A DNA stretch of 64,000 nucleotides from Candidatus Marinacidobacterales bacterium (GCA_965262245.1 OZ253507.1:8796911-8860910), one strand, 5' to 3'. Shown: positions 34,556-49,861, numbered from the stretch's first letter. A program made the numbers and translations. Notes: generated by a model not told the origin, from the letters alone.

Positions 34556-34712
34556 CTCGAGGACTGTAGCACGCGCGCCGATCGATCAGCTGATCCTCTC
34601 CAGTGGATCCGCAACACGGCCAGTCGCCATTTTGCGGTAGTGCGTCAGTTTGATTATTTTAGACCTTGATTTCTTGCCCGCACTCTGGCAGCGTTTGTCA
34701 CTTGGAGGTGAC

Positions 34713-34967
34713 ATGCCACGAGGACCGCAGAAACAATGGAGACCAGCAGGCACCGCCGAGTGTGCCGTCCACGTCATGAGGATCGCAACCGGCGAGCTCG
34801 ACGAGACGTTTGAGCCGCCCAGTAGAGATTCGGACCCGGACGCCAGCAAGCGCGCATCGGTGGCCGGCAAGGCTCGCGCCGCCAGCCTGACGCCAGAGCA
34901 GCGCTCAGAAATCGCACGGAAGGGTGGCAAGGCGAAGGCCAAGAGGAAGGCGGATGCTCCCGGCTAA
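34713..34967 (+). CDS. small basic hypothetical protein (~84 aa) with a KGG-like basic tail
   Basis: ..ASLTPEQRSEIARKGGKAKAKRK..; an ORF only, with weak resemblance to KGG stress-protein repeats. Confidence 0.3.
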   Translation: MPRGPQKQWRPAGTAECAVHVMRIATGELDETFEPPSRDSDPDASKRASVAGKARAASLTPEQRSEIARKGGKAKAKRKADAPG

Positions 34968-35040
34968 CAAAGCTTCGTGCTATATTTCTCCTGTGAGTCC
35001 GTGTCGAGTTGTTCGTCCGCTACCGAGGCTTCGGTCTGCC

Positions 35041-35286
35041 ATGCAGCAGACTTGCAAGATGTGCGGGCAGCCGGATAAGTTCGACTTCCAAGTTCCCGAC
35101 GAGTTGTGGCGGGAGGTCGTGCCTAAAGACTATCAAAGTCTTGCCGTTTGCCTATATTGCTTCGATGAAGAGGCCGCCGCGAAGGGTCTCGACTTCGCGG
35201 CGGCCTTGACCGAGCTCTGCTTCGTGGGCCGCTCTGCTTGCCTAGGCTTTCGGATATCCAGCATGGGAGGCGGCGCCACAGACTAA
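35041..35286 (+). CDS. small Cys-rich hypothetical protein (CxxC ... CxxC zinc-ribbon-like)
   Basis: MQQTCKMCGQPDKFDFQV..VCLYCFDEEAAAKG. Confidence 0.3.
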   Translation: MQQTCKMCGQPDKFDFQVPDELWREVVPKDYQSLAVCLYCFDEEAAAKGLDFAAALTELCFVGRSACLGFRISSMGGGATD

Positions 35287-35465
35287 TCGCAGATTTTGTC
35301 CTTATTCTCCTCCTTGCCTTGACATTGGTTGCAGAACTCGCCAGATGTTGGCTTGCTCCACTTATCTTCATAGTCGCGCTTCGGCCAATTTCCGCAATTG
35401 GTGCAGAAGTGCCAGGTATCGCTATCTTTGCGCCGTCGATAGTGTGGCCGTGCCATCCTCATCAC
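35283..35465 (-). CDS. small zinc-ribbon hypothetical protein (60 aa)
   Basis: ..HFCTNCGNWP..CNQCQG.., a CxxC-N20-CxxC arrangement. Confidence 0.3.
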   Translation of the reverse strand: MMRMARPHYRRRKDSDTWHFCTNCGNWPKRDYEDKWSKPTSGEFCNQCQGKEENKDKICD

Positions 35466-35483
35466 CTCCGTTCTTGTTGAGAG

Positions 35484-36032
35484 CTATGGGCTAGCGATTG
35501 AAAACTCTCGCCCCTCGGGCAGCAATGCTGGCGTGAGGGTAACGCGTACACCGTCAAATCCGGACAAACGTATTGCCCTTTGCTGAACGGTTCCATCCTT
35601 CTTGTCGGTGAATCCAGCTAGAAGCTGGAAATCGTCCCAATCTCCTGATTTGACATTGGTCCTTGCGGTAATTGAAATTGTTTGATCTGAGCCTGCGCCT
35701 ATATCGCTATAGCCTGCCGCCCTGATGTCGGCAGCGGTCAGCTCGTAACGCTCTACTTGTCTGCCTTGCTGGAAGTACGTAACCCGAAAAAAGTTCCAGG
35801 TTGCCGTGCCACCTCCAGTCTCTCGGATCCGTATCGGATACTTCACCGCTAGCCAGAATGTGCGGTTGATGCTGGGGTGTAGCGTAACAGTGCCGCTGCC
35901 AGTGAATTCCACTACAGCGGAGGGAGTCGGCGGAGGCGGTGTGGGCCTCGTTGGTGTCTTGTCGCCTCCATTCCCGCAACCGAAAAAAAGAATAAGTATG
36001 GCCACTCCGAATACAGCTTTCCGTCTGAACAT
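35484..36032 (-). CDS. hypothetical lipoprotein (~183 aa)
   Basis: MFRRKAVFGVAILILFFGCGNGG signal peptide with a lipobox; Pro/Thr-rich linker. Confidence 0.5.
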   Translation of the reverse strand: MFRRKAVFGVAILILFFGCGNGGDKTPTRPTPPPPTPSAVVEFTGSGTVTLHPSINRTFWLAVKYPIRIRETGGGTATWNFFRVTYFQQGRQVERYELTAADIRAAGYSDIGAGSDQTISITARTNVKSGDWDDFQLLAGFTDKKDGTVQQRAIRLSGFDGVRVTLTPALLPEGREFSIASP

Positions 36033-36263
36033 GGAACATCCTCCTGTGGTTTGGTCCCGGAGAATTGGTCGCCGGGCCAGTCGCCAAACAAGGCTGCACG
36101 TGGCGTGCAGGCTCCCGCTTATTCCCCCCACGCAAAAAGGTGTTGTATTTAGCGGGTGACCCGACGCTCGGGCCACGCACAACCTTGTTTGGCGGGAGTG
36201 AGATTACACCAACTTGCGCGCGCAAGTCGAGCGGAATCTTTGGACCTTTGGGCCATCCGAAAA

Positions 36264-36298
36264 GAGTTGACATTCCTGCTTGCGGAATATATACTTTT
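36264..36298 (+). promoter_or_regulatory. sigma70-like promoter candidate (TTGACA-N17-TATACT) ahead of the IS1-like transposase
   Basis: gagTTGACAttcctgcttgcggaataTATACTtttgattATG. Confidence 0.45.
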
Positions 36299-36302
36299 GA
36301 TT

Positions 36303-37181
36303 ATGAATAAGCTGCCGGTTGAGAAGCGAGCCACCATCCTCAAAATGTTGATGCATGGATCGTCCATACGGTCGATCAGCGAGATTATGGACGCGTCCGC
36401 CAACACGATCTCAAAGCTGCTGATCGATGCCGGAAAGGCTTGCTCTGCCTACCACGACGTGGCGGTCCGTAACGTGAGTTCGAAGCGCGTTCAGGTCGAT
36501 GAGATCTGGTCATTCACCTACGCGAAAGCGAAGAACGTCGCGCGGGCGAAGGCCGCTCCCGAGGGCGCAGGCGACACCTGGACGTGGACGGCGCTCGATG
36601 CCGACTCCAAGCTGATCGTCTCCTGGCTCGTTGGTGGGCGCGACGCCGGATACGCCACCGAGTTCATGCAGGACGTGGCTAGTCGTCTTGCCAACCGCGT
36701 GCAACTCACGAGCGACGGCCTCAATGTGTACCTCTCGGCCGTCGAGGATGCGTTCGGTGCGGATATCGACTACGCCATGCTGATCAAAAGCTACGGAGAC
36801 GCGCCGGAGGGCCAGCGGCGGTACAGCCCCGCCGTCTGCACCGGAACAACGAAGAAACCCGTCACCGGCGACCCCGACGATGCGCACATCAGCACCAGCT
36901 ACGTCGAGCGGCACAACCTGACGATGCGGATGGCGATGCGTCGGTTCACGCGGCTGACGAACGCTTTCTCGAAGAAGCTGGCGAACCATGAGCATAACGT
37001 CGCGCTCTACACCGTGTGGTACAACTTCTGCCGTATCCACCGGAGCCTTCGTGTCACTCCAGCGATGGAAGCCGGACTGGCCGACACTCCCTACGATGCC
37101 GAGTGGATCGTCGGACTGGTGGATGCGGCAGCGCCGAAGCCGCGTAAGCCAGGCCCGAAGGGGCCGCGCAAGAAAAAGTAG
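36303..37181 (+). CDS. IS1-family-like DDE transposase (single ORF with N-terminal HTH), 292 aa
   Basis: HTH (..SIRSISEIMDASANTISKLL..) then VQVDEIWSF..., ERHNLTMRMAMRRFTRLTNAFSKK and YNFCRIHRSLRVTPAMEAGL, typical of DDE_Tnp_IS1-type proteins. Confidence 0.6.
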   Translation: MNKLPVEKRATILKMLMHGSSIRSISEIMDASANTISKLLIDAGKACSAYHDVAVRNVSSKRVQVDEIWSFTYAKAKNVARAKAAPEGAGDTWTWTALDADSKLIVSWLVGGRDAGYATEFMQDVASRLANRVQLTSDGLNVYLSAVEDAFGADIDYAMLIKSYGDAPEGQRRYSPAVCTGTTKKPVTGDPDDAHISTSYVERHNLTMRMAMRRFTRLTNAFSKKLANHEHNVALYTVWYNFCRIHRSLRVTPAMEAGLADTPYDAEWIVGLVDAAAPKPRKPGPKGPRKKK

Positions 37182-37184
37182 GGG

Positions 37185-37598
37185 TTAGAAGAACAGAGTC
37201 TCAAGTGCTTTTCGGATGACCTGCCAGCGAAGATATTCACCATCGTAGGTTCCATCTTCACCTTTCGCCATTTTGTATCGGCAGTCTCCGTCGGCGTTTA
37301 AAGTGAGAGATGCTCGGAATATCTCATTCTCGACGTTGTCTTGGACCAGGATATGGCTCGGGTTGAGCATGAAATAAACCGAGCTTGAGTTCTTTGGATT
37401 GTAATGAGCTGTGACATAGAACATCCGATCCTTCTCCCGCTCACTAAAGTTGAAGTGGAGGCTGCCACCATTGCTAACCAGCTTATTACGGGCGACAATA
37501 TCTTCCTTGACTGCGGCCTTTATCCTCTCGAACTGAACCGCAAGCGAGCACTCGGCTCTGACCGTTACCCAATCGAAGCCGTGGTCCTTCGGGCTCAT
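37185..37598 (-). CDS. hypothetical protein (137 aa) in a locally lower-GC patch next to the IS1-like gene
   Basis: ORF with a coding-like composition; no motif recognised. Confidence 0.35.
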   Translation of the reverse strand: MSPKDHGFDWVTVRAECSLAVQFERIKAAVKEDIVARNKLVSNGGSLHFNFSEREKDRMFYVTAHYNPKNSSSVYFMLNPSHILVQDNVENEIFRASLTLNADGDCRYKMAKGEDGTYDGEYLRWQVIRKALETLFF

Positions 37599-37828
37599 TC
37601 AAAATCCTCCCAGGCGCAGGTTAGCAGCGCAGGCGGAAATAATCAAACTGATGCAGTACCCATTTTGCGGTCTGCTTGACATTCCCGAGGGCACCATGTA
37701 AATAGCAGTGTGAATCCGTTCGGCGGCCCGATGAAAATCTTCAGACACACATATGCCGGCCAATCTCCTCGTTCGAAAAACCGCTGAACGCACGCACTCC
37801 GTTCGGCCGGCGTACTCGGAACGACGAC

Positions 37829-39973
37829 GTGGACGTTGGAGGGAAGGCAGTCATGGAAAACGTTTCTCGGAACCCGATGACCCGGCATGCACTCGTCCCG
37901 GGACTCCTCTGCCTGACCTTGGCCGCGGGTCCAACGATCGGATCCGGCGCATCACCTGCGGGCCTTCAGGAGGGAAAGCCCGCGTCCGTAGAGGTCGACC
38001 CGCCGGAGCTGGAGCTCGAGGTCGGCGAGACGATCCAGCTTCGAGCCGTCGTGAAAGACGCACGGGGAACCGTCCTGCCGGGAGCCCAGGTGGTTTTTTT
38101 CTCCGGATCGCGCTCGTCGGTGGGAGTGACTCCCTCGGGAATGGTGGAGGCCTATCAGCCCGGCGAGCACGAGCTCACCGCCCTGTCCCCCGCTGAATCT
38201 TTCGAGGGAGAGCCCGATAGCTACAGTCGACGCGATAGCGGGATTCGGACCACGATCAAAGTGAAGGTCCCGGTGCCGCCTTTGGCCCGGCTGGATTTCG
38301 TCGATTTGCCCGCGACGCTCTATGCCGGAACCACGGTGCCGGTCGAGGTGAGTGCAACCGATGTGAGCGGGACCACCCGCGGGGACATTGAATCCGTTTT
38401 GAGCGTCAGCGACACCAGCGTCGCCCGGGCCGGCGTGGGCGAGGTTACCGCCTTGAGACCCGGGAAAGTGAAGCTCGAAGCCCGAGCGGAACGGGTCACG
38501 GCCAACTTCGAGCTGACCGTACGAGAGAATCCGGTTCGCTCACTCGAGCTCGAGGCCTCCCGCGAGGAAGGACGCACCGGGGACGTGATCCACTTCGAGA
38601 CGACCGCGAAGGACGAGAGGGGACGGCCGGTCGCCGACGCTCCAGTCACTTACACCCTGCTGGCCCGGCCGGACCCCAATCGCGCCGAAACCGTCGGTGC
38701 TGGAGCACCGGCACAAGTGGCCGACGACGGTCGCTTCGTGGCCGAGCAGCCGGGAATCTACACCGTGATTGCGATGTCGGGCCCGCACTTAGCCCGACGG
38801 AGCGTTCGGATCACCCCGCGCGACGTTCAGCGAAAGATCGAGCTGGTCGGCCATGCGCCCGTCGGGGACCGGGTGACCTCGGATCTCTGGGTCTGGGAGG
38901 GGGTCGACGGCCGAGATTACGCGGTTCACGGCACTTGGAACGCGGGGGGTCACGCGTATTTCTACGACGTCACCGACCCCTCCAACATGCAGCGCATCGA
39001 TATCATCCAAGTCGACGCCCGGACCGTCAACGACGTAAAGGTCTCCGAGGACGGACGCATCTGCGTCATCAGCCGCGAGGGGGCTTCGAACCGGCGCAAC
39101 GGCATCGTGATTCTAGACGTGAGCGATCCTCGAAACGTGCGCATTCTCTCTCAGTTCGACGAGCAGTTGACAGGAGGCGTGCACAACGTGTTCATTCACG
39201 ACAAACACGTTTACGCGGTCAATAACGGGCGTCGCTGGGACGTCATCAACGTCGAAGACCCCACCAAGCCCCAGCGGGTCTCTCGTTTCGAGTCCACGAC
39301 GCCGGGCCACGCCATCCACGACGTCTGGGTGCGCGACGGTATCGTTTACCAGGCGGGGCGGACCGACGGCCTGGTCATGATCGACGTCGGCGGCGGGGGC
39401 AAGGGCGGCTCTCCGACGAACCCGGTGGAGATGGGCCGCCTGGGACAGCTCACCGGATGGAATCACTCGGTGTGGCCGTTCCAGAGCAAGTCCGCCGGCA
39501 AGTTCTATATCGCCGGCGGCGACGAAGCCTTCTGGGACAACCCTCTGGCGCCCGGCGTTGGCATTAGCTGGCAGGAACGGATACCCTCGTATGCGAAGGG
39601 CTGGATTCACTTCGCGGAGTTCGACGACCCGAAGAACCCGCGGGAGGTGGCCCGCTATCAAGTCCCCGAATCGGGTCCACATAACTACTGGATAGACTGG
39701 GAAGAGGAGATCCTGTACGTCGCCCACTTCGACGCTGGCCTTCGCGTCGTCGACATCTCCGGAGAGCTGATGGGCGATCTCTATCGGCAAGGGCGTGAGA
39801 TCGCCAAGTTCTACTCCGACGATTCCAAGGGGTTCATACCGAACGCGCCTTTCGCTTGGGGACCGCAACCGCACAAGGGCACCATCTTCTTCACCGACCT
39901 CTACAGCGGGCTTTGGGCAGTCCGGCTGCTTCCCAAGGAAGATTCGGAAGCGGAAACGACGAGCATGCGATGA
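37829..39973 (+). CDS. secreted surface protein: N-terminal bacterial Ig-like (Big_2) domains plus a C-terminal LVIVD-repeat beta-propeller (~714 aa). The true start is probably an internal Met preceding the signal peptide
   Basis: Signal peptide. Big_2-like ..VEVDPPELELEVGETIQLRAVVKDARGTVLPGAQVVFFSG..; LVIVD-type repeats (GIVILDVSDP, GLVMIDVG, GLRVVDISG). Confidence 0.7.
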   Translation: MDVGGKAVMENVSRNPMTRHALVPGLLCLTLAAGPTIGSGASPAGLQEGKPASVEVDPPELELEVGETIQLRAVVKDARGTVLPGAQVVFFSGSRSSVGVTPSGMVEAYQPGEHELTALSPAESFEGEPDSYSRRDSGIRTTIKVKVPVPPLARLDFVDLPATLYAGTTVPVEVSATDVSGTTRGDIESVLSVSDTSVARAGVGEVTALRPGKVKLEARAERVTANFELTVRENPVRSLELEASREEGRTGDVIHFETTAKDERGRPVADAPVTYTLLARPDPNRAETVGAGAPAQVADDGRFVAEQPGIYTVIAMSGPHLARRSVRITPRDVQRKIELVGHAPVGDRVTSDLWVWEGVDGRDYAVHGTWNAGGHAYFYDVTDPSNMQRIDIIQVDARTVNDVKVSEDGRICVISREGASNRRNGIVILDVSDPRNVRILSQFDEQLTGGVHNVFIHDKHVYAVNNGRRWDVINVEDPTKPQRVSRFESTTPGHAIHDVWVRDGIVYQAGRTDGLVMIDVGGGGKGGSPTNPVEMGRLGQLTGWNHSVWPFQSKSAGKFYIAGGDEAFWDNPLAPGVGISWQERIPSYAKGWIHFAEFDDPKNPREVARYQVPESGPHNYWIDWEEEILYVAHFDAGLRVVDISGELMGDLYRQGREIAKFYSDDSKGFIPNAPFAWGPQPHKGTIFFTDLYSGLWAVRLLPKEDSEAETTSMR

Positions 39974-42150
39974 AGCCGGAGGCCAAAACGATGAGATCCG
40001 TTGTGACGCGATGCTGCTGGCTGATGTTGGCGGCGATGCCGAGTGCCTTGGCGGCGGCTCTACCTGCGCCGACACAGCCCGCCGACACGCCCGATTCCAT
40101 CGAAGTGACGCCGAGCTCACTGGAGCTCAGGGCCGGCGAGACGGCTCAACTGACGGCCCTGGTCAAAGACGCCAGCGGCAACGTCTTACCGAATGCCCCG
40201 GTGATCTTCTTCTCCACCGGCCGCTCCTCGGTGACGGTGACGCCGGCGGGCAGGGTGGAGGCCCGCCGCGCCGGTGAGCACACCGTCGTGGCGCTGTGCC
40301 CTTCGGAACGTCTGGAAGCCGACGCGTCGCTGCGCGGCGTTCCCGGGATCCGCTTCTCGGTCCCCGTCAAAGTAACGCCGTCTCCCCTCGCACGACTCGA
40401 CTTCGGTGACGTCCCGGCAAGGCTCCACGTGGGCGCGGTGGTGCCCGTGGCTGTCACGGGAACCGATGTCAACCAGAATCGACAAGACGTTCGCGCGGAG
40501 CTAACGGTGAGCGACCCTTCGATCGCAAAAGCTGTGAGCTTCGGACCCACCTTTCAGGGTTCGACAGACGCACACCCGCAGTATCGTCGTCCTCGACCCG
40601 AGCTGTTTCCATCGGACGCAACGGGAATCTTGACGGCGCTGGCACCGGGAAAGGTAACGGTGACCGCGACCACGGCCGAAGGCGTCTCGGCGCAAATGGA
40701 GCTGAGGATCGACGCGAATCCAGCCCGCTCGCTCGAGCTGACCGCTTCTCGAGACGAGGCACGCACCGGCGACGTGGTCCACTTCGAGGCGGTGGCCAGG
40801 GACGGCGAGCAAAGGACCGTTGCGGAGGCGCCCATCCGTTACATGCTTCAGGCCTGGTCCGATCCGAGTCGGCCAGAGACCGTGGGGGCGGGGGCGCCGG
40901 CGCAGGTAACCCCAGACGGGCGGTTCGTCGCGGAACAGGCGGGCCTCTACACGGTGGTGGCCATGTCCGGAACTCTCGTCGCGGAGCGGACCGTTCGGAT
41001 CGCTCCTCGAAACGTGAAGAAGCGGGTCGAGTTCGTGGGTCATGCCCCCGTACGCGACCGCGTCACCTCGGACCTCTGGGTCTGGGAGGGCGTGGACGGG
41101 CGAGACTACGCGGTGCACGGCACGTGGAACGCCGATGGCCACGCCTACTTTTACGACGTCACCGATCCCGCCAACATGCAGAGGATCGACATCGTGCAGG
41201 TCGACGCGAGAACGGTCAATGACGTCAAGGTCTCCGAGGACGGTCGGATCTGCGTGATCAGCCGCGAAGGCGCTTCCAACCGGAAAAACGGGCTCGTCAT
41301 TCTGGATGTAAGCGATCCGCGTAACGTCACGATTCTGTCCAGATACGACGATCAGCTCACCGGCGGGGTGCACAATGTTTTCATTCACGAGAATCATATC
41401 TACGCGGTGAACAACGGCCGGCGGTGGGACGTGATCAACATCGAGGATCCGAAGAGTCCGGCTCGCGCGGCTCGTTTCGAGACCTCAACGCCGGGCCGAT
41501 CCGTGCACGACGTTTGGGTACGCGACGGGATCGCCTACCAGGCAGGCAACACGGATTCGCTGATTCTCTTGGACGTCGGCGGCGGCGGCATGGGCGGCTC
41601 GCCGGCACAGCCCGTCGAGATGAGCCGGTTGCCTCAGCTCACCGGTTGGAACCACGCCGTATGGCCTTTTAAGAGCAAGTCGGCCGGCAAGTTATACGTC
41701 TTCGCCGGGGACGAAGCCCACCCGTTCAACCCGCGCGTGCCCGGGGAGATCATTTCCTGGAAACAGCGCGTGCCCAGCCGCGCGATGGGGTGGATCCACG
41801 TCGCGGACTTCACCGATAAGGAGCGGCCGCGGGAAGTGGCTCGCTACCAGATTCCGGAGGCCGGGCCTCACAACTACTGGATCGATTGGGAGCAAGAGGT
41901 CATGTACGTTGGCTACTTCAATGCCGGCCTTCGGGTAGTCGACGTCTCCGGCGAGTTGCTGGGCGACTTGTACGGTCAAGGGCGGGAGATCGCGAAATTC
42001 TACTCCGACGACAGCGCCGGCTTCGTGCCGAACGCCCCGTTCGTCTGGGGTGCCCAACCGCACAAAGGGCACATCTTCTTCGCGGACTTCCACAGCGGTC
42101 TTTGGGCCGTCCGCCTCGTCGATACCGAGGAGAGCAGCACCGAACAATGA
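39970..42150 (+). CDS. paralog of the preceding Big_2 + LVIVD beta-propeller surface protein (~55-60% identical), start overlapping the upstream stop
   Basis: Signal peptide MRSVVTRCCWLMLAAMPSALAA; near-colinear motifs with the first copy throughout. Confidence 0.7.
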   Translation: MKPEAKTMRSVVTRCCWLMLAAMPSALAAALPAPTQPADTPDSIEVTPSSLELRAGETAQLTALVKDASGNVLPNAPVIFFSTGRSSVTVTPAGRVEARRAGEHTVVALCPSERLEADASLRGVPGIRFSVPVKVTPSPLARLDFGDVPARLHVGAVVPVAVTGTDVNQNRQDVRAELTVSDPSIAKAVSFGPTFQGSTDAHPQYRRPRPELFPSDATGILTALAPGKVTVTATTAEGVSAQMELRIDANPARSLELTASRDEARTGDVVHFEAVARDGEQRTVAEAPIRYMLQAWSDPSRPETVGAGAPAQVTPDGRFVAEQAGLYTVVAMSGTLVAERTVRIAPRNVKKRVEFVGHAPVRDRVTSDLWVWEGVDGRDYAVHGTWNADGHAYFYDVTDPANMQRIDIVQVDARTVNDVKVSEDGRICVISREGASNRKNGLVILDVSDPRNVTILSRYDDQLTGGVHNVFIHENHIYAVNNGRRWDVINIEDPKSPARAARFETSTPGRSVHDVWVRDGIAYQAGNTDSLILLDVGGGGMGGSPAQPVEMSRLPQLTGWNHAVWPFKSKSAGKLYVFAGDEAHPFNPRVPGEIISWKQRVPSRAMGWIHVADFTDKERPREVARYQIPEAGPHNYWIDWEQEVMYVGYFNAGLRVVDVSGELLGDLYGQGREIAKFYSDDSAGFVPNAPFVWGAQPHKGHIFFADFHSGLWAVRLVDTEESSTEQ

Positions 42151-42371: not shown

Positions 42372-44012
42372 TCATTCGGGCGATCTGATCGTCGTAGCCG
42401 GCCAGCTCCCAGCGAACGAGCGACACGGGAATGACTCCTGCCGCATGGAACTCGTCCATGAAGCGCTTGAGAGTGAAATCGTCGCGAGCTGGAGGGCCCG
42501 TTCGGCCATCAGCATATCGATCTGGATCTTGCCGATGAGGTAGCTCGTCCCGTAGCCGGGCTGCTGCAGGTAGAGATGCTTCTCGCCATAAACGGTGTCG
42601 CTGCCCTCGGGCATCCACCCCCGCGGGGTCCATTTCGCGGCAAACTGCGCCGCCTCGTCGATGGTGTACTCGTTGCTGTGCATGCGCAGGCCACCCAGAG
42701 CGCGGGCGGTACGCTGAGCGAGAAGAATCCAGATGAGCTCACGCGAGCGGGGGCGATCGTCGAAGAGCCCGGCGTGCATCATCATCTCTTCCATCGCGGT
42801 GGCGATCCCCTCGGAGCGTGCGTCGTAGATGTTGCTGAGCGACGGCACCCGCCGGATCGGACTCGCGTGCGGCTCTTGGTCCATCCGGGCGAGGTCGAAC
42901 CAGTGGTGCCCGTGGGTCCGCATCGTCAGCGGGTCGCGATAACTGACCTCTGAGAAGAAACCGCGCAGTCCGTCGGCCGGGCTGAAACGCCCGATTCGGG
43001 CTCGGAGCGCTGCATCTTCGTAGTCACGGACCGAAATGATTTCCTCTTCTTCGAGAAACTTCATGTATTCGGTCACCGCATCGTTGAAGCGGCGGTCGTA
43101 CGCTTCGGCGCTCGCGATGCGGGTCTGCTCCGGCAGCTTGCGGTTGCGGTTCTCTTCGAGCCGCAGGGACCGTGGGAGCGGACGAGCTCCCGGAGCATGA
43201 GCGTCTCTTGTTGTTCCCAGGTGTACGGGACGAGGTGGACGTTTTGCAGGTACCAGGTGTAGTTGTCCGCCCCGACGCCCGAGGGTCCCGTCTTCGAATC
43301 CGCCTCGTTTTCGAGCCAGTCGATGAATGCGTCGGTGGCCTCGCGGGCCGCCACGATGGCCGCATCCAGCTCGTCGCTTTGGCCGGACACCCGACTCGCG
43401 AAATTCTGCAGATCAGTGCTCTGGCCTTTCATGGCCCGGATCCCCATCACCCAGAGGTCCCGGGCGTCTTCGACCAGATTGCCCCGGGCCTGCTCGAGAA
43501 GGGCCGCTCCCGATCCGTGCTGCGAGCTCCGCAGCATCCGCCTCGGAAAGCGGATACTCGTAGGTCCACAAGTCGATCCAGCCATGGATGACCGGGCCTT
43601 CGTGAGCCGGCACGTCGCTCTGGGAAGGAAAGATCGTCGTGTAGAACGCCGGGTTGCGCGCCCACGGCCGACGCACCCTTTGGTCGAAGTCGAGCCCGTT
43701 CATCTCCGCTCGTACCAGATGGTGGTCGATTTGCTGCGACACCGGCCAGCCGCTCGGGTCGATGGCGGCGAGCCGTTGCTGATACCCGGCCAACTCGCGG
43801 TGCTGGGCCGCCATGGCTCCCGAGGCATAGTCCGGGACGCCGTAGACCATCTCGGGCCGCTCGAACTCCCTCCACTCCTCGAACAGCGCGACGAGATCAT
43901 CGTAGCTGGTACTCGTGGCGGCAGTACCCGCCGCCTCTTCGCTGGGAGCGCCGCCGGGGCCGCAGCCAGCAGCGAGAGCGAGCACTGCGGCCAGCCAGAG
44001 AAACGTTGCCAT
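42372..44012 (-). CDS. DUF885-family lipoprotein (putative metallopeptidase-like, ~545 aa), spread over three ORFs by two frameshifts
   Basis: Lipoprotein signal (MATFLWLAAVLALAAGC). ORFs 43413..44126, 43073..43585 and 42372..43076 are colinear with DUF885 and sum to about 600 aa. Confidence 0.55.
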
Positions 44013-44154
44013 CGGAGCGAGCAAGACATGGTAGACCTCCATTGTCGCCGGCAAGTCACCGGAACACGACGCGCCGATACTCGTTCTCGACTCGCCGGAT
44101 GTCAAACGGCAAGGCGAAGCGGGCAAACCCTCACGGAGTCAAAATGCCGGATTG

Positions 44155-44265: not shown

Positions 44266-45951
44266 ATGCCGGTAAAAACGTCCATTCTTGTTTTCCTGAG
44301 TGCGGCAGTGGCCATGCCGTTGCTCGCGCAGCCGGACGAGGCTCGCACCGGCTTCGACAGCATCCGGGCAGATGCGCTGAAGGGCCACATCTACTTTCTC
44401 GCATCCGAGGAGCTGGGAGGGCGGCTCTCGCTGAGCTACCAGGCGCGCGTGGCCGCCAGCTACGTGGCGGCGGGCTTCTATCGTGCGGGGCTTACGCCGA
44501 TGGGGAGTGGCAGCCGCTCGCCAGTGCTCGTCACTTACCGCGAATCGAGGAATCATCCTGGCGGCGTATCTTTCTTTCAAAGCTTCGAAATGGTCGATGC
44601 CGAGCTCGATCGGGAAGGCACGCGTCTCGGCGCGACGATCGCGACGCCGTCCGGTGGCCTGCTCGAAAAGGAATACGTGGCCGGTTCGGACTTTTTCGTT
44701 GGACGGCACTGGAACGGAAACGTCGAGGTGAGCGCCCCCGTTGCCTTCGCCGGCTACGGCGTCTCGGCACCCGAATACGCCTATGATGATTTCGAAGAGC
44801 TCGACGTGTCCGGAAAAGTCGTTTTGGTGCTCGCCATGGAACCGCAGCTCGACGATCCGGACAGTGCCTTTCTCGGAGCGTCGGAGACGTTCCACGCCTA
44901 CAACTTCTACAAGCACGAGGTGCTCCGGAAGCGCGGCGCCGCCGCCATCCTGATGGTGGGGCGCGATCGTCGCACTCGTCCGACTCCCCGCGTGCCGAGT
45001 GGTCCCACCAGCACCGAGGCGATTCCGAACCGGCCCTCGCACACGCTCACGCCGCCCTACTACGGGATTCCACTCTTCCGCGTAACCGAGCGTGTTGCCG
45101 ACGAGCTGCTGGGACCTTCCGGCAAGACGCTTCGAGAGCTGCAATCGGAGATTGACGCCACCGGAAAGCCTCGCTCCATCGCGGTACCTGATGTTACGGT
45201 GCGCCTGGTCCGGCCACTGAGAGACCTGAAGCTGGTCTCTACCCGGAACGTCATCGGCGCACTCGAGGGATCCGATCCGGCGCTCAGAGACGAGTACGTG
45301 ATCATCACCGCCCACTACGACCACTCCGGAGCGACAGACCAGGTTATCTTTCACGGCGCCGACGACAACGCCTCGGGAACGGCGGCGGTTATGGCTCTCG
45401 CCGAAGCGTTCGCCGCGAATCCGGCACGCCCGAAACGAAGCGTTTTGTTCCTCGCCTTCGATGCAGAGGAGAACGGACTCCTGGGTGCGTTTCACTACGT
45501 CGAGAATCCGATCGTAGCTCTTGAGAAAACGGTCGCGGTTCTCAACATGGACATGATTGGCCGCAACGAGGAGTCCGCCACCTGGGCGAGTCGTGCCGCC
45601 GACACTGGAAACACCGTGAACCTCGTGGGAACACGCTACAGCGCCGATCTGCGGGCCGTCATCGAGAAGGCCAATCGAGCCATTGGACTCTCTCTCGACG
45701 AGAAGATGGAGCGAGACGATCGAGAGAACTGGTTCGCACGCAGCGATCACTTCGCCTTCGCGACGCGTTCCATCCCGATGGTTCTCTTCAGCACCGGGGA
45801 GCATCCCGACTACCACACGCCCAACGACACTTGGGATCGCATCGACTACCCCAAGCTCACCCGCATCGTGCGGTTGGTGTACTTGACGGCGTGGGAGCTG
45901 GCGAACGGCGCGAGCCGTCCACGGTTCGTCGCGCGTCTAGTGAGCGAATGA
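44266..45951 (+). CDS. secreted M28-family aminopeptidase with a PA (protease-associated) domain
   Basis: Signal peptide; ..ITAHYDHSG..GADDNASGTAAVMALAEAF ... FLAFDAEENGLLGA.. are the zinc-ligand motifs of peptidase M28. Confidence 0.8.
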   Translation: MPVKTSILVFLSAAVAMPLLAQPDEARTGFDSIRADALKGHIYFLASEELGGRLSLSYQARVAASYVAAGFYRAGLTPMGSGSRSPVLVTYRESRNHPGGVSFFQSFEMVDAELDREGTRLGATIATPSGGLLEKEYVAGSDFFVGRHWNGNVEVSAPVAFAGYGVSAPEYAYDDFEELDVSGKVVLVLAMEPQLDDPDSAFLGASETFHAYNFYKHEVLRKRGAAAILMVGRDRRTRPTPRVPSGPTSTEAIPNRPSHTLTPPYYGIPLFRVTERVADELLGPSGKTLRELQSEIDATGKPRSIAVPDVTVRLVRPLRDLKLVSTRNVIGALEGSDPALRDEYVIITAHYDHSGATDQVIFHGADDNASGTAAVMALAEAFAANPARPKRSVLFLAFDAEENGLLGAFHYVENPIVALEKTVAVLNMDMIGRNEESATWASRAADTGNTVNLVGTRYSADLRAVIEKANRAIGLSLDEKMERDDRENWFARSDHFAFATRSIPMVLFSTGEHPDYHTPNDTWDRIDYPKLTRIVRLVYLTAWELANGASRPRFVARLVSE

Positions 45952-46014: not shown

Positions 46015-47958
46015 TTGACGAGGGGGAATGACATGAGAACGGCGTTGCTTGTGTGTCTTTGCTGCTTGCTGGCCTCCGCGGTCGCGACTTCCCAGCCCGG
46101 CTCCGAGGCTCTTCGGGTGGACAATCTTCTGTCCATCAACTCCGTCGTCGGTGGCGAAACTCCGCAATGGTCGCCCGACGGGAAGCATCTTCTCTTCGCC
46201 TCGAGTCTGGGAGACGGCGGTCTTCTGACGATCTCTCCCGACGGCGGTTTCCCCACGCGCGTTCCCCTCGATCTCGGCGGGTCGGGGCATTTTCTGGCGC
46301 TTCAGACGCCGCAATGGTCGCCCGACGGTGCCTGGATCGCTTACGTTGCGGACAAGTCCGGCTCTCCCGAGCTCTGGCTCTGGTCGGTCGCAGGTGGGCG
46401 TGACCGGCAGCTCACCGATCTGGGCGGACGCATCAATTCCTTTCGCTGGTCCCCGGATGGGACCGCCATTGCTTTCGCAGGCGACCGCTACGGCAACTAC
46501 GATATCTGGAAGGCGCGCGTAGACGACGGTACGATCCATCGTTTGACCAAAAAGGAGCGCTACGAAGTGTTCCCCTTCTGGACTCCGGACGGCGAGACGA
46601 TCCTCTACGCCGAGCTGGACGAACGATGGGAGGACCACACCGTGATCGCGATGACGGGTGATGGAGAAAGCCCGCGGGTCGTGGTGGTAGACACCGACTT
46701 TTTCGACTATCGAGCCGGTGGCACGTTCGCCTATCCCCGCGTCTCGCCCGATGGGCAGGCCGTGCTCTTTCGCTCGCACCGAAGCGGCTGGATCAACTAC
46801 TGGGTGGTGCCCCTCGGAGTCGGCGAGCCGAGAGCCGTTCATGCCGAGGAGGCCGACCAGAGCCACGCCCGCTGGTCTCCCGATGGACAATCCATCGCGT
46901 TCGTCTCGAACCGGAACGGGACGCACCATCTCATGGTGGTTGCGGCGAGCGGCGGGACACCCCGCGCTCTCGTGAGTCCCGAAGTGGGCGTGGTTGCCAG
47001 CCCCGAGTGGTCGCCCGACGGGACGCGGCTGAGCTACACCTTTGAGACGACGACCCGTCCTCGAGATCTGTTCGTGGTGGAAGTTTCGAGCGGTGACAGG
47101 CGCCAGCTCACCGACTCCCTCCTGGCAGGTGGCCTCGAAGCGACGCTGATCCCACCCGAGAAGATCCGTTACCGGAGCACCGACGGTTTCGAGATTGCCG
47201 CCTACCTCTACAAGCCTGCTGCGTTCCGTTCCGGCGAGCGCTTTCCCGGAGTTCTGTGGATCCACGGCGGTCCCACCTCCCAGTTCCACGACACCTTTCA
47301 ACAACACGTTCAGTTCTTTGTTCAGCGAGGCTACGTCGTGCTCCTCCCCAACATCCGCGGCAGCTCCGGCTACGGAAAGGCGTTCGCAGACGCCAACAAC
47401 GGCTGCTGGGGACATTGCGATCTCGAAGACGTCCTGGCCGGAGTCGACTACTTGAAAACGCTCGCCTACGTGGACTCGGACAAGATAGGCATTACCGGAA
47501 CGAGCTACGGGGGCTGCATGAGCCTCTCGGCCGTTGCGTTCGCGCCCGGCGTCTTTCAAGCCGCGATCCCGGGCTCCGGCTACGCCGACTGGTTCCATTT
47601 CACGGAAGAGCAGGAGCTCCGTCACATCAAGCTCCTCGAGCACGAGTTCGGACCGCTGCCCGACAACGAGGAGACCTACCGTCGGAACTCCCCAATCTTC
47701 TCAGTCGAGCGCGTCACCACACCAACGTTTCTCGTTCACGGTGAGGGGCGGTTCCCACGCTCGAGCGCCTCGCTGAACTTCGCCCTCGAGCTCAAGAAGA
47801 ACTACAAGGTGTTTCGGCTGAAGGCCTACCCGAACGAGAACTACTACGTGCGAGGCAGGAAGAACCGGCGTCAGCTGCTTCTCGATATGTTGTCCTTTTT
47901 CGACCAGTTTCTGAAAGGTGGCCCGAAAGGGGACCCGCCGGTCACCTCGAACGAATAG
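46015..47958 (+). CDS. S9-family serine peptidase (prolyl oligopeptidase / acylaminoacyl-peptidase type): N-terminal PD40 propeller plus alpha/beta hydrolase
   Basis: Signal peptide; repeated ..WSPDG.. blades; GITGTSYGG nucleophile elbow; ..GSGYADW.. catalytic region. Confidence 0.8.
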   Translation: MTRGNDMRTALLVCLCCLLASAVATSQPGSEALRVDNLLSINSVVGGETPQWSPDGKHLLFASSLGDGGLLTISPDGGFPTRVPLDLGGSGHFLALQTPQWSPDGAWIAYVADKSGSPELWLWSVAGGRDRQLTDLGGRINSFRWSPDGTAIAFAGDRYGNYDIWKARVDDGTIHRLTKKERYEVFPFWTPDGETILYAELDERWEDHTVIAMTGDGESPRVVVVDTDFFDYRAGGTFAYPRVSPDGQAVLFRSHRSGWINYWVVPLGVGEPRAVHAEEADQSHARWSPDGQSIAFVSNRNGTHHLMVVAASGGTPRALVSPEVGVVASPEWSPDGTRLSYTFETTTRPRDLFVVEVSSGDRRQLTDSLLAGGLEATLIPPEKIRYRSTDGFEIAAYLYKPAAFRSGERFPGVLWIHGGPTSQFHDTFQQHVQFFVQRGYVVLLPNIRGSSGYGKAFADANNGCWGHCDLEDVLAGVDYLKTLAYVDSDKIGITGTSYGGCMSLSAVAFAPGVFQAAIPGSGYADWFHFTEEQELRHIKLLEHEFGPLPDNEETYRRNSPIFSVERVTTPTFLVHGEGRFPRSSASLNFALELKKNYKVFRLKAYPNENYYVRGRKNRRQLLLDMLSFFDQFLKGGPKGDPPVTSNE

Positions 47959-48148: not shown

Positions 48149-49861
48149 ATGCGTTCCCTACGGTCGATGACGATGATTGCCGCCATGTTCCTGGCGGTAT
48201 TTGTTCATTCGGTGGGCGAGGCGCAGACAAAAGCGTTGCCTACCGATCCAAGAGACCCGCTTCTCAATCAGGGGCCGAAAGAGGAAGAGATCGCGGAGAA
48301 GGCCATGGTCAGCACCCAGCTTCCCGCGGTGACCGAGGCGGCTCTTCAGGTGCTGAGAGAAGGCGGTAATGCCGCGGATGCTTTCATCACCGCGGTTTTC
48401 ATGCAGCACGTCAACGACTTCCACCAGGTGTCTCTCTTCGGGGCCATGACCGGGCTCTACTACGAGGCGTCGTCGGGAAAGTATTACGCGTTCAACGCTT
48501 TTTCGGACCGACCCCTGGCCGACCGAAGTGAAGTGGGCGACCCCAGCAAGGTGGCCATCGCGGGCACCGTTCGCGGTCTCGAAGCCCTCGCCAAGCGCTT
48601 TGGAACCCGTGCCTGGGCGAGCTACCTCAAGCCGTCGATCGCCTCGGCCGAAGAAGGTGTCCTCGTCACCTCCTTCATGTATGCCAGCAATTACTCGACG
48701 ATGGAAAGAAGCCTGGCGGAGAACCGCGAAGCGAGAGAGTTCTACAAGCCGGACGGGCATCTCGTTCCCGTCGGGTTCCGCTGGAAGATGCCCAAACTGG
48801 CGGAGACGCTCCGCAAAGTAGCGTCGGAAGGGGCGGACTATATGTATACCGGCGCCTGGGGGCAGAAGTTCGTCGAGGAAGCAGTCGAGCGTGGAGGTCG
48901 CGTGACGCTCGAGGACATGGCGAGCTACGAAGTGCGGTGGATGGAGCCGGTGCGCTTCACGTATCGCGGACACGAGATCATTGGCGAGCCACCGCCCGGC
49001 ACCGGCGGCCTGATTCAAGCCTACAGTATGAACATCCTCGAGAACTTTGACTTGAGAGCGCTGGGGCACTTCACCACCTCGCCGCGAACCCTCGAGATCA
49101 TGGCGCGCACCTTTGGCCGTGTCGAGGACGAGCTGCGTTGGACGCTACGGGATCCGCTGAGTTTCCAAATCCCGAGCGAGGTCTGGCTTTCCAAGGAGTA
49201 TGGACGAACGGGCGCCGAATTTGCGCGGAAGACCACGACGCACCCCGGGGTGAGTCTTGCCGGCAGCAAGGAAACGGCGGGCGCTGACGGCGGTGTCCCT
49301 CTCCTCGCACGTCAGGAGCGAGACGGGCTTCCGGTTCTGGGCAGCAATCACAACGTGATCGTGGACGCCCAGGGAAACTGGATCTCGTCTCTCCATACCG
49401 GCCACGGAGGCGCTCCCGGCGTCTTCATCGACGGTGTCCGTGCAACCGGGAGCGGGATGCGGGGAGAAACGACGGGGCCGGGGCGGCGCATCCTGGCCGG
49501 AGTGGGTGCGGTCATGGTGGCCAAGGACGGTGTCCCGTGGCTGGCTTTGGGCACGCCCGGCTGGCCGCCTCAACCCATCGTGGAAGTGCTCGTCAACATC
49601 ATCGATTTCGACATGCACCCGAAGGACGCAGCCGACGCGCCGCGCTTCTTTGCTTTTCTCAACAACGAGAACGTGGTGGAGATAGAGTCTCGGATCTCGG
49701 AGGAGGTGCGAGAAGGGATGGCCGCCGCGGGCATCAAGCTGAACGAGCTCGGAGACTACAATTGGCATACCGGCTCAATACAAATCGTCTGGCGCGACGC
49801 CGATGGAAAACTCCACGGTGTCAGCGACCCCCGTCGCCTGGGATATTCGGCGGGCTACTAG
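48149..49861 (+). CDS. ggt: secreted gamma-glutamyltransferase-family protein (second GGT-like gene in the window)
   Basis: Signal peptide; 570 aa; GGNAADAFITAVFMQHV, the ..VDAQGNWISSLHTGHGGAPG.. nucleophile region and a C-terminal ..GDYNWHTGSIQIV.. follow the GGT fold order. Confidence 0.65.
   Translation: MRSLRSMTMIAAMFLAVFVHSVGEAQTKALPTDPRDPLLNQGPKEEEIAEKAMVSTQLPAVTEAALQVLREGGNAADAFITAVFMQHVNDFHQVSLFGAMTGLYYEASSGKYYAFNAFSDRPLADRSEVGDPSKVAIAGTVRGLEALAKRFGTRAWASYLKPSIASAEEGVLVTSFMYASNYSTMERSLAENREAREFYKPDGHLVPVGFRWKMPKLAETLRKVASEGADYMYTGAWGQKFVEEAVERGGRVTLEDMASYEVRWMEPVRFTYRGHEIIGEPPPGTGGLIQAYSMNILENFDLRALGHFTTSPRTLEIMARTFGRVEDELRWTLRDPLSFQIPSEVWLSKEYGRTGAEFARKTTTHPGVSLAGSKETAGADGGVPLLARQERDGLPVLGSNHNVIVDAQGNWISSLHTGHGGAPGVFIDGVRATGSGMRGETTGPGRRILAGVGAVMVAKDGVPWLALGTPGWPPQPIVEVLVNIIDFDMHPKDAADAPRFFAFLNNENVVEIESRISEEVREGMAAAGIKLNELGDYNWHTGSIQIVWRDADGKLHGVSDPRRLGYSAGY

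Follow-up and report, generated by a model that had tools for sequence, protein, structure and literature searches.

The closest described relatives of the proteins reported here are Sb-PTE of Sphingobium sp. TCM1 and the haloalkylphosphorus hydrolase of Sphingomonas sp. TDK1 (PDB 5hrm and 5ioj), which have the same seven-bladed propeller of the LVIVD type. The triester substrate of Sb-PTE is a recent xenobiotic, and to our knowledge no paired or fused paralog of this enzyme has been described. A further related propeller model is choice-of-anchor B (TIGR04312), named after a C-terminal sorting or anchor signal (PEP-CTERM, LPXTG or a T9SS tail). Tandem beta-sandwich domains of the Big_2 type make up the arrays of LigA/LigB, intimin and SbsC, and it is typically in surface proteins that LVIVD repeats and Big_2 domains are annotated (PMC2447325). 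On Sb-PTE itself, PMC11656708 cites Mabanglo et al. 2016. Here we describe two adjacent genes on the same strand, G1 and G2, in a 64,000-nucleotide stretch of DNA from a Candidatus Marinacidobacterales bacterium (GCA_965262245.1 OZ253507.1:8796911-8860910; hereafter the window). The closest genome was a Candidatus Marinacidobacterales metagenome-assembled genome (MAG; Acidobacteriota) with 98% identity. An earlier note on this DNA had recognized the two paralogs, which we confirmed, and had suggested a surface scaffold; our analysis makes it more likely that they are a pair of exported, probably metal-dependent propeller enzymes working together. The family is set apart within the LVIVD/Sb-PTE-type propellers by an immunoglobulin-like (Ig-like) stalk, by paired and fused paralogs, and by a partner propeller, called Y below.

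The propeller of G1 and G2 is homologous to that of Sb-PTE. Searches of the PDB sequences with single sequences and a shallow profile matched no propeller and missed Sb-PTE. A deeper profile of 55 family representatives at 30-70% identity matched 5hrm/5ioj, annotated "haloalkylphosphorus hydrolase," at E = 1e-10 (2e-8 with a propeller-only profile), and no other propeller passed E = 0.01 in the profile searches. When the G2 propeller model alone was submitted to Foldseek, the top match was again Sb-PTE (5hrm_A; E = 1.8e-10, 17% identity), which is therefore both the sole solved propeller structure reached by the family profile and the top structural match. In the HMMER alignment, the histidine of the GGVHN motif (H444), which stands at the start of the repeat's first strand, fell on positions His258 and His389 of the 5ioj chain, and the acidic residue that ends the following strand fell on Glu407, all three of which we take to be metal ligands of Sb-PTE.

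Close homologs share at least 120 invariant positions, among them H444, H489, H538, H586, and H610, the acidic residues D344, D394, E409, D490, D557, and E558, and many Arg, Lys, and Asn residues. Most of the histidine and acidic positions were also retained in the 55 representatives, which extend down to 30% identity (D394 in 51, E409 and D490 in 50 each, H444, H489, H538, and E558 in 48 each, and H610 in 45). In the predicted structure of G1, the conserved set of the propeller (D344, D394, E409, H444, H489/D490, H538, D557/E558, H586, and H610/N611) lies either at the very start of the second strand in each four-strand group (position one or two) or at the end of its third strand. Comparison with WD40 and Sb-PTE repeats suggests that these strands are the innermost one (A) and strand B, at the mouth of the channel. 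This pattern of conservation points to a metal-dependent catalytic site. Every conserved His, Asp, and Glu position is kept in both G1 and G2, and thus neither looks like a degenerate partner.

Our proposal is that this propeller acts as a metal-dependent hydrolase domain of the Sb-PTE kind, probably with a binuclear site. The residues that begin the innermost strand, blade by blade (D344, D394, H444, H489/D490, H538, and H610/N611), would hold the metals at the upper end of the central channel, and the Glu/Asp residues that end the second strand (E409 and D557/E558) would join in metal binding. The substrate may be anionic, as suggested by the many invariant Arg and Lys residues.

An AlphaFold2 model of G1, computed from 84 homologs, had a predicted local distance difference test score (pLDDT) of 88.7. 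In this model the signal region, residues 1-37, was disordered and was followed by three beta-sandwich domains and then by 28 strands in seven groups of four (residues 329-692). Judging from the strand order, the first propeller strand (G1 residues 329-336) would close the last blade as a velcro. LVIVD repeats, as units of about four strands that build a beta-propeller, were matched in the models of both proteins (pLDDT 87-89), and the propeller therefore folds on structure prediction as the earlier note had anticipated. Both proteins scored above the gathering threshold of the Pfam LVIVD family (PF08309; 35.8 bits for G1 and 35.9 bits for G2, threshold 20.2), and the six LVIVD-region motifs quoted previously were all found in their translations. 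The claim of Big_2 modules (PF02368, gathering 22.8 bits) held at that threshold for G2 (30.2 bits) and fell just short of it for G1 (21.8 bits), in which the model shows the three sandwiches; the family profile also matched the Big_2-type domains of a teneurin-like protein, LigA, and SbsC at E = 1e-25 to 1e-14. The signal peptides ascribed to both proteins were borne out by hydrophobic, signal-like N termini, as judged by eye.

Compared with the described systems, G1 and G2 carry an N-terminal triple Ig stalk that Sb-PTE lacks. The propeller of a relative aligned to positions 27-363 of the 364 in TIGR04312 and scored 71.4 bits, with 57.6 and 50.4 bits for G1 and G2; all of these lie below the cutoff of 100 bits, and in place of the C-terminal anchor of that group the two proteins have the N-terminal stalk. 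Their tandem beta-sandwiches resemble the Big_2 arrays of LigA/LigB, intimin, and SbsC, which both the profile and Foldseek matched, but the array is short (three domains), leads into a conserved propeller, and is without the adhesin-type anchor or long array. After the last propeller strand, both proteins continue for 10-15 residues as short acidic tails, and G1 and G2 contain no anchor or sorting signal and no SLH/CTD domain. A cell-surface location, as had been claimed, is thus unproven, and a periplasmic or released location is equally likely.

G1 and G2 were 66% identical over 688 residues by BLASTP, which is higher than the 55-60% first estimated; by region, the Ig part is 58.6% and the propeller 76.8% identical. 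The synonymous divergence (dS, Nei-Gojobori) was about 1.4-1.6 in both regions. The Ig part had a nonsynonymous divergence (dN) of 0.35 and the propeller one of 0.16, giving dN/dS ratios of ∼0.23 and ∼0.12, respectively. Because dS is this high, the substitution pattern indicates an old duplication under purifying selection, and the earlier view that the pair is too diverged for a recent duplication stands. Recent gene conversion was considered as the source of the high propeller identity and was rejected on the basis of the dS of about 1.4.

In a neighbor-joining tree of 107 copies, the G1 and G2 clades are sisters. The G2 clade is independently supported by an insertion in the second Ig-like domain, whose HPxY...P motif was present in 20 of 20 G2-clade sequences and in no other aligned family member. 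The pairing is not unique to this contig. A second family copy lay within 7 kb in 10 of 80 GTDB loci, with a third copy in one locus, and the order G1 then G2 was found in the window, in loci L001, L006, and L028, in the protein pairs P0003/P0017 and P0004/P0019, and in L032, where one gene lies between.

At one locus (L010), a G1-type and a G2-type protein are joined as a single open reading frame (ORF) of 1,397 amino acids (P0271). A database search with this fusion returned two more that are full length, P0272 (1,377 amino acids) and P0273 (1,394 amino acids), each 65% identical to the L010 protein; all three share about 65% identity with one another and come from different samples. In all of them the N-terminal half is nearest to the G1-type half of L010, the C-terminal half is nearest to the G2-type half and carries the G2 insertion, and an acidic linker replaces the internal signal peptide. 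P0271, P0272, and P0273 are thus Rosetta-stone proteins, in which genes that are separate in the window are fused elsewhere. They are best explained by one ancestral event whose product was kept over long divergence. A side observation concerns the G2-type half of P0273, which has Gln at the position equivalent to H489 (GRSVQDVWV), with the His kept in the first half; this may hint that one site can degenerate after fusion.

The fusion speaks for joint action of G1 and G2 in a fixed ratio, and contact between them is plausible. Given the conserved order, the G2-clade insertion, and three divergent fusions without an internal signal peptide, G1 and G2 very probably work together. The suggestion of a heteromeric pair thus gains on the side of joint function, and a physical heteromer goes no further than plausible. 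In the arrangement we envisage, G1 and G2 would be co-transcribed, 17 nucleotides apart with a Shine-Dalgarno sequence in the spacer, as ancient paralogs, each made up of a signal peptide that is cleaved off, three Big_2-type Ig domains as a stalk, and a seven-bladed LVIVD propeller. They would pair 1:1, either in the periplasm or extracellularly; the simplest form would be a heterodimer that arose from an ancestral homodimer, and both subunits would be catalytically competent, with their main difference in the Ig stalk. We regard the heterodimer as plausible and put it forward tentatively. The reading as a whole, that of paired exported metal-dependent propeller hydrolases that may be heterodimeric, is the one we favor, and it too is held with caution.

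Several points weigh against it. The TM-score of the propeller to 5hrm was 0.44, at ∼17% identity, and generic WD40 propellers superposed better (TM ∼0.65). The sequence match to Sb-PTE is largely due to the repeat motif, and the gathering of the conserved residues into one site is deduced only from strand positions in a model. On the genomic side, in some genomes the G1-type and the G2-type gene are not linked (L013/L022 and L021/L031), and other genomes have a single copy, which implies that the adjacency is not obligatory; and all three fusions appear to come from one event.

These genomic observations bear on the main rival, which we consider somewhat unlikely: G1 and G2 may be independent isozymes, enzymes of the same kind that do not touch and are co-expressed from one operon, their Ig stalks and substrate contacts having diverged to give two specificities. 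Besides the unlinked genes, other family members were duplicated in tandem or nearby on separate occasions (L055, L072, L073, and L066/L082, with up to three copies), both copies keep all the conserved site residues, and the rate of evolution of the Ig region is about double that of the propeller, all of which would suit isozymes. However, the G1-then-G2 order has been held over long divergence, and a single-chain fusion kept across ∼35% sequence divergence is easier to understand if 1:1 proximity is needed.

The genes around the pair were examined in the window and in other family loci. Downstream of G2 lie genes for an M28 peptidase, an S9 peptidase, and a gamma-glutamyltranspeptidase (GGT), all with signal-like N termini, and so the secreted peptidases reported nearby are indeed present. 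The block is common to the close relatives L002-L004, and two more distant pair-bearing loci have S9, M14, M24, and Tricorn-like peptidases nearby. When 122 genes flanking family members at about 40 other loci were scanned with Pfam, no peptidase family was enriched; the commonest families were of the VWA/Bat type (7 of 122). The peptidase neighborhood was therefore rejected as a family-wide clue: it is lineage-specific, a context outside the conserved module.

The scaffold proposal of the earlier note, in which G1 and G2 would be a non-catalytic surface heteromer whose propellers and Ig domains bind ligands or organize the neighboring secreted peptidases, is improbable in the light of these results. 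It draws on the resemblance of the full-length model to S-layer and adhesin Ig arrays (Foldseek of the full-length protein against the PDB returned only such generic arrays and WD40 matches), on the exported M28, S9, and GGT genes here and in close relatives, and on the usual annotation of LVIVD and Big_2 domains in surface proteins (PMC2447325). Against these stand the lack of an anchor, sorting signal, or SLH/CTD domain, the peptidase neighborhood that is not conserved among the 122 neighbors, and the fact that the closest solved relative is an enzyme; an identity of ∼60% across phyla with invariant His, Asp, Glu, Arg, and Asn residues would also be unusual for adhesins.

The only neighbor conserved family-wide was Y, an exported YVTN-type seven-bladed propeller of ∼370 amino acids. 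Its gene lies directly downstream of a family member in 42 of 81 loci (for example, L001 14335-15432 and L029 8986-10092); it follows the pair in L001, L055, and L073, and its start often overlaps the preceding stop, as in L001. The Y gene is absent from the window and from the fusion loci, and it is present beside a third family paralog in a MAG of the source species (L019). Y has the invariant motifs GPHG, AHG, LHG, MPHG, and HGV and a variable His/Met-rich loop. Its best PDB matches were generic YVTN propellers (1l0q, hydrazine synthase beta, and YncE), and no close relation to the family propeller was detectable (hhalign probability 64%). Y was rejected as an L-NosZ relative, the NCBIfam match being weak and partial (73 bits against a cutoff of 700). 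An apparent fusion of a family member (F) with Y (P0295, 1,086 amino acids) was also rejected, since the F end is garbled and Y retains its own signal peptide; it looks like a frameshift or a gene-call merge. In the Balneolaceae loci L035, L039, L040, L050, L052, L064, L071, and L073, a ZIP-family metal transporter gene lies two genes past the F-Y pair, which may reflect no more than synteny or else a connection with metal supply.

It is very improbable that the propeller is instead a redox or copper enzyme, in which a histidine ring would hold a multicopper or similar cluster (compare N2O reductase and thiocyanate dehydrogenase) and act with Y: successive blades do each supply histidines, and Y, with its frequent position directly downstream, its His motifs and His/Met-rich loop, and its weak L-NosZ match, would suit such a role, but no cupredoxin, cytochrome, or copper-chaperone gene is consistently nearby, the best PDB relatives of Y are generic, Y is missing from the window and the fusion loci, and the conserved carboxylates better suit a hydrolytic binuclear site.

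The family is large. Among 8,000 candidates scored, 5,582 proteins matched at E <= 1e-10, the best 120 matches all being 58-75% identical and about 700 amino acids long, and 311 clusters at the 50% identity level were obtained at E <= 1e-30. At least 598 matches were found among GTDB species representatives, within the Acidobacteriota in Vicinamibacteria, Marinacidobacterales, and Thermoanaerobaculia/Multivorans, and outside them in Balneolaceae, Porticoccaceae, Lysobacterales, Planctomycetota, and Cyclobacteriaceae. An identity of ∼60% is maintained across phyla in this Ig and LVIVD-propeller family, whose members are plentiful in Balneolaceae and in Acidobacteriota of marine and sediment origin and are annotated in databases merely as "hypothetical" or "Ig-like domain-containing." One member, P0007 (1,158 amino acids), combines Pfam PQQ_2, Big_2, and LVIVD.

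A broader interpretation is possible, and we hold it with considerable doubt: the proteins with three Ig domains and a LVIVD propeller, which occur in Acidobacteriota, Balneolaceae, several Gammaproteobacteria, and others, may be a new and widespread class of propeller enzymes that are exported and carry a binuclear metal site. This class would be the natural stock of the xenobiotic phosphotriesterase Sb-PTE, would usually have a dedicated YVTN-propeller partner, and in one acidobacterial lineage would have become an obligate G1/G2 heterodimer that was then fused in a sub-lineage. The family may thus indicate the natural ancestry of Sb-PTE, which is used for the degradation of organophosphate flame retardants. 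The probable metalloenzyme link to Sb-PTE, the YVTN partner, and the paired and fused forms give concrete, testable hypotheses for a large "hypothetical" family. Taken by itself, the window offers a modest finding: two paralogous genes in a conserved operon that encode putative enzymes.

The coordinates of the locus are given in Table 1. The lengths of ∼710-760 amino acids first reported apply to the maximal ORFs and exceed those of the likely genes. For G1, a gene call of 706 amino acids, 99% identical, is present on four other contigs. For G2, an alternative start at ATG 39970 would give 726 amino acids and share ATGA with the G1 stop, and the reported overlap of start and stop holds with this start alone. 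ATG 39991, which leaves a gap, is likelier on account of the GGAGG spacing, a short, positively charged n-region as in G2 orthologs, and its choice in the gene calls of three 99%-identical contigs (L002-L004). The two genes are tightly linked, and a genuine overlap is doubtful.

Table 1. Features of the G1-G2 locus, with positions counted from the first nucleotide of the window
Feature	Position	Strand	Details
G1 ORF (maximal)	37829-39973	+	714 amino acids
Shine-Dalgarno-like GGAGGG	37838..37843	+	9 nt 5' of G1 ATG 37853; read from the sequence
G1 gene	37853..39973	+	Likeliest start ATG 37853, 706 amino acids; ORF and translation
G1 Ig-like (Big_2-type) domains 1-3	37985..38815	+	Residues 45-139, 144-224, 230-321; DSSP of AlphaFold2 model
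G1 seven-bladed LVIVD propeller	38837..39928	+	Residues 329-692; 28 strands in AlphaFold2 model
G2 ORF (maximal)	39856-42150	+	764 amino acids
Shine-Dalgarno GGAGG	39978..39982	+	In the 17-nt G1-G2 spacer, 8 nt 5' of ATG 39991
G2 gene	39991..42150	+	Preferred start ATG 39991, 719 amino acids
G2-clade insertion, second Ig-like domain (VSFGPTFQGSTDAHPQYRRPRPELFPSDAT)	40534..40623	+	∼30 amino acids; gap in G1/G2 alignment
G2 seven-bladed LVIVD propeller	41026..42117	+	AlphaFold2 propeller-only model, pLDDT 87.3
Exported hydrolase block: M28 peptidase, S9 peptidase, gamma-glutamyltranspeptidase	44266-45951, 46015-47958, 48149-49861	+	Pfam

Rfam searches upstream of G1 found no element, and promoter and terminator scans gave nothing informative. 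A ∼3,025-bp insertion at 34636-37660, bounded by 24-bp terminal inverted repeats (34636-34659 and 37637-37660) and bearing an IS1-like DDE transposase ORF (36156-37181), ends ∼190 bp 5' of the G1 start. The 99%-identical contigs L003 and L004 lack this insertion, and so the original promoter of the G1-G2 operon may have been displaced by it. Within the G1 coding region, ARAGORN predicted a tRNA-Ser(cga) on the minus strand (38470-38550); this is almost certainly a false positive, because Rfam found no tRNA there even at E <= 10.

Between G2 and the hydrolase block, a DUF885 gene on the minus strand (42372-44126) is present as three overlapping ORF fragments and is intact in L002-L004 (559 amino acids). 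The window differs from these contigs by 17-18 gaps over 12 kb, and the broken gene is either a pseudogene or the product of assembly indels. In the Vicinamibacteria loci L022-L025, which hold single genes of the G2 clade, the next gene, on the opposite strand, encodes an indoleamine 2,3-dioxygenase homolog (Pfam E = 6e-85).

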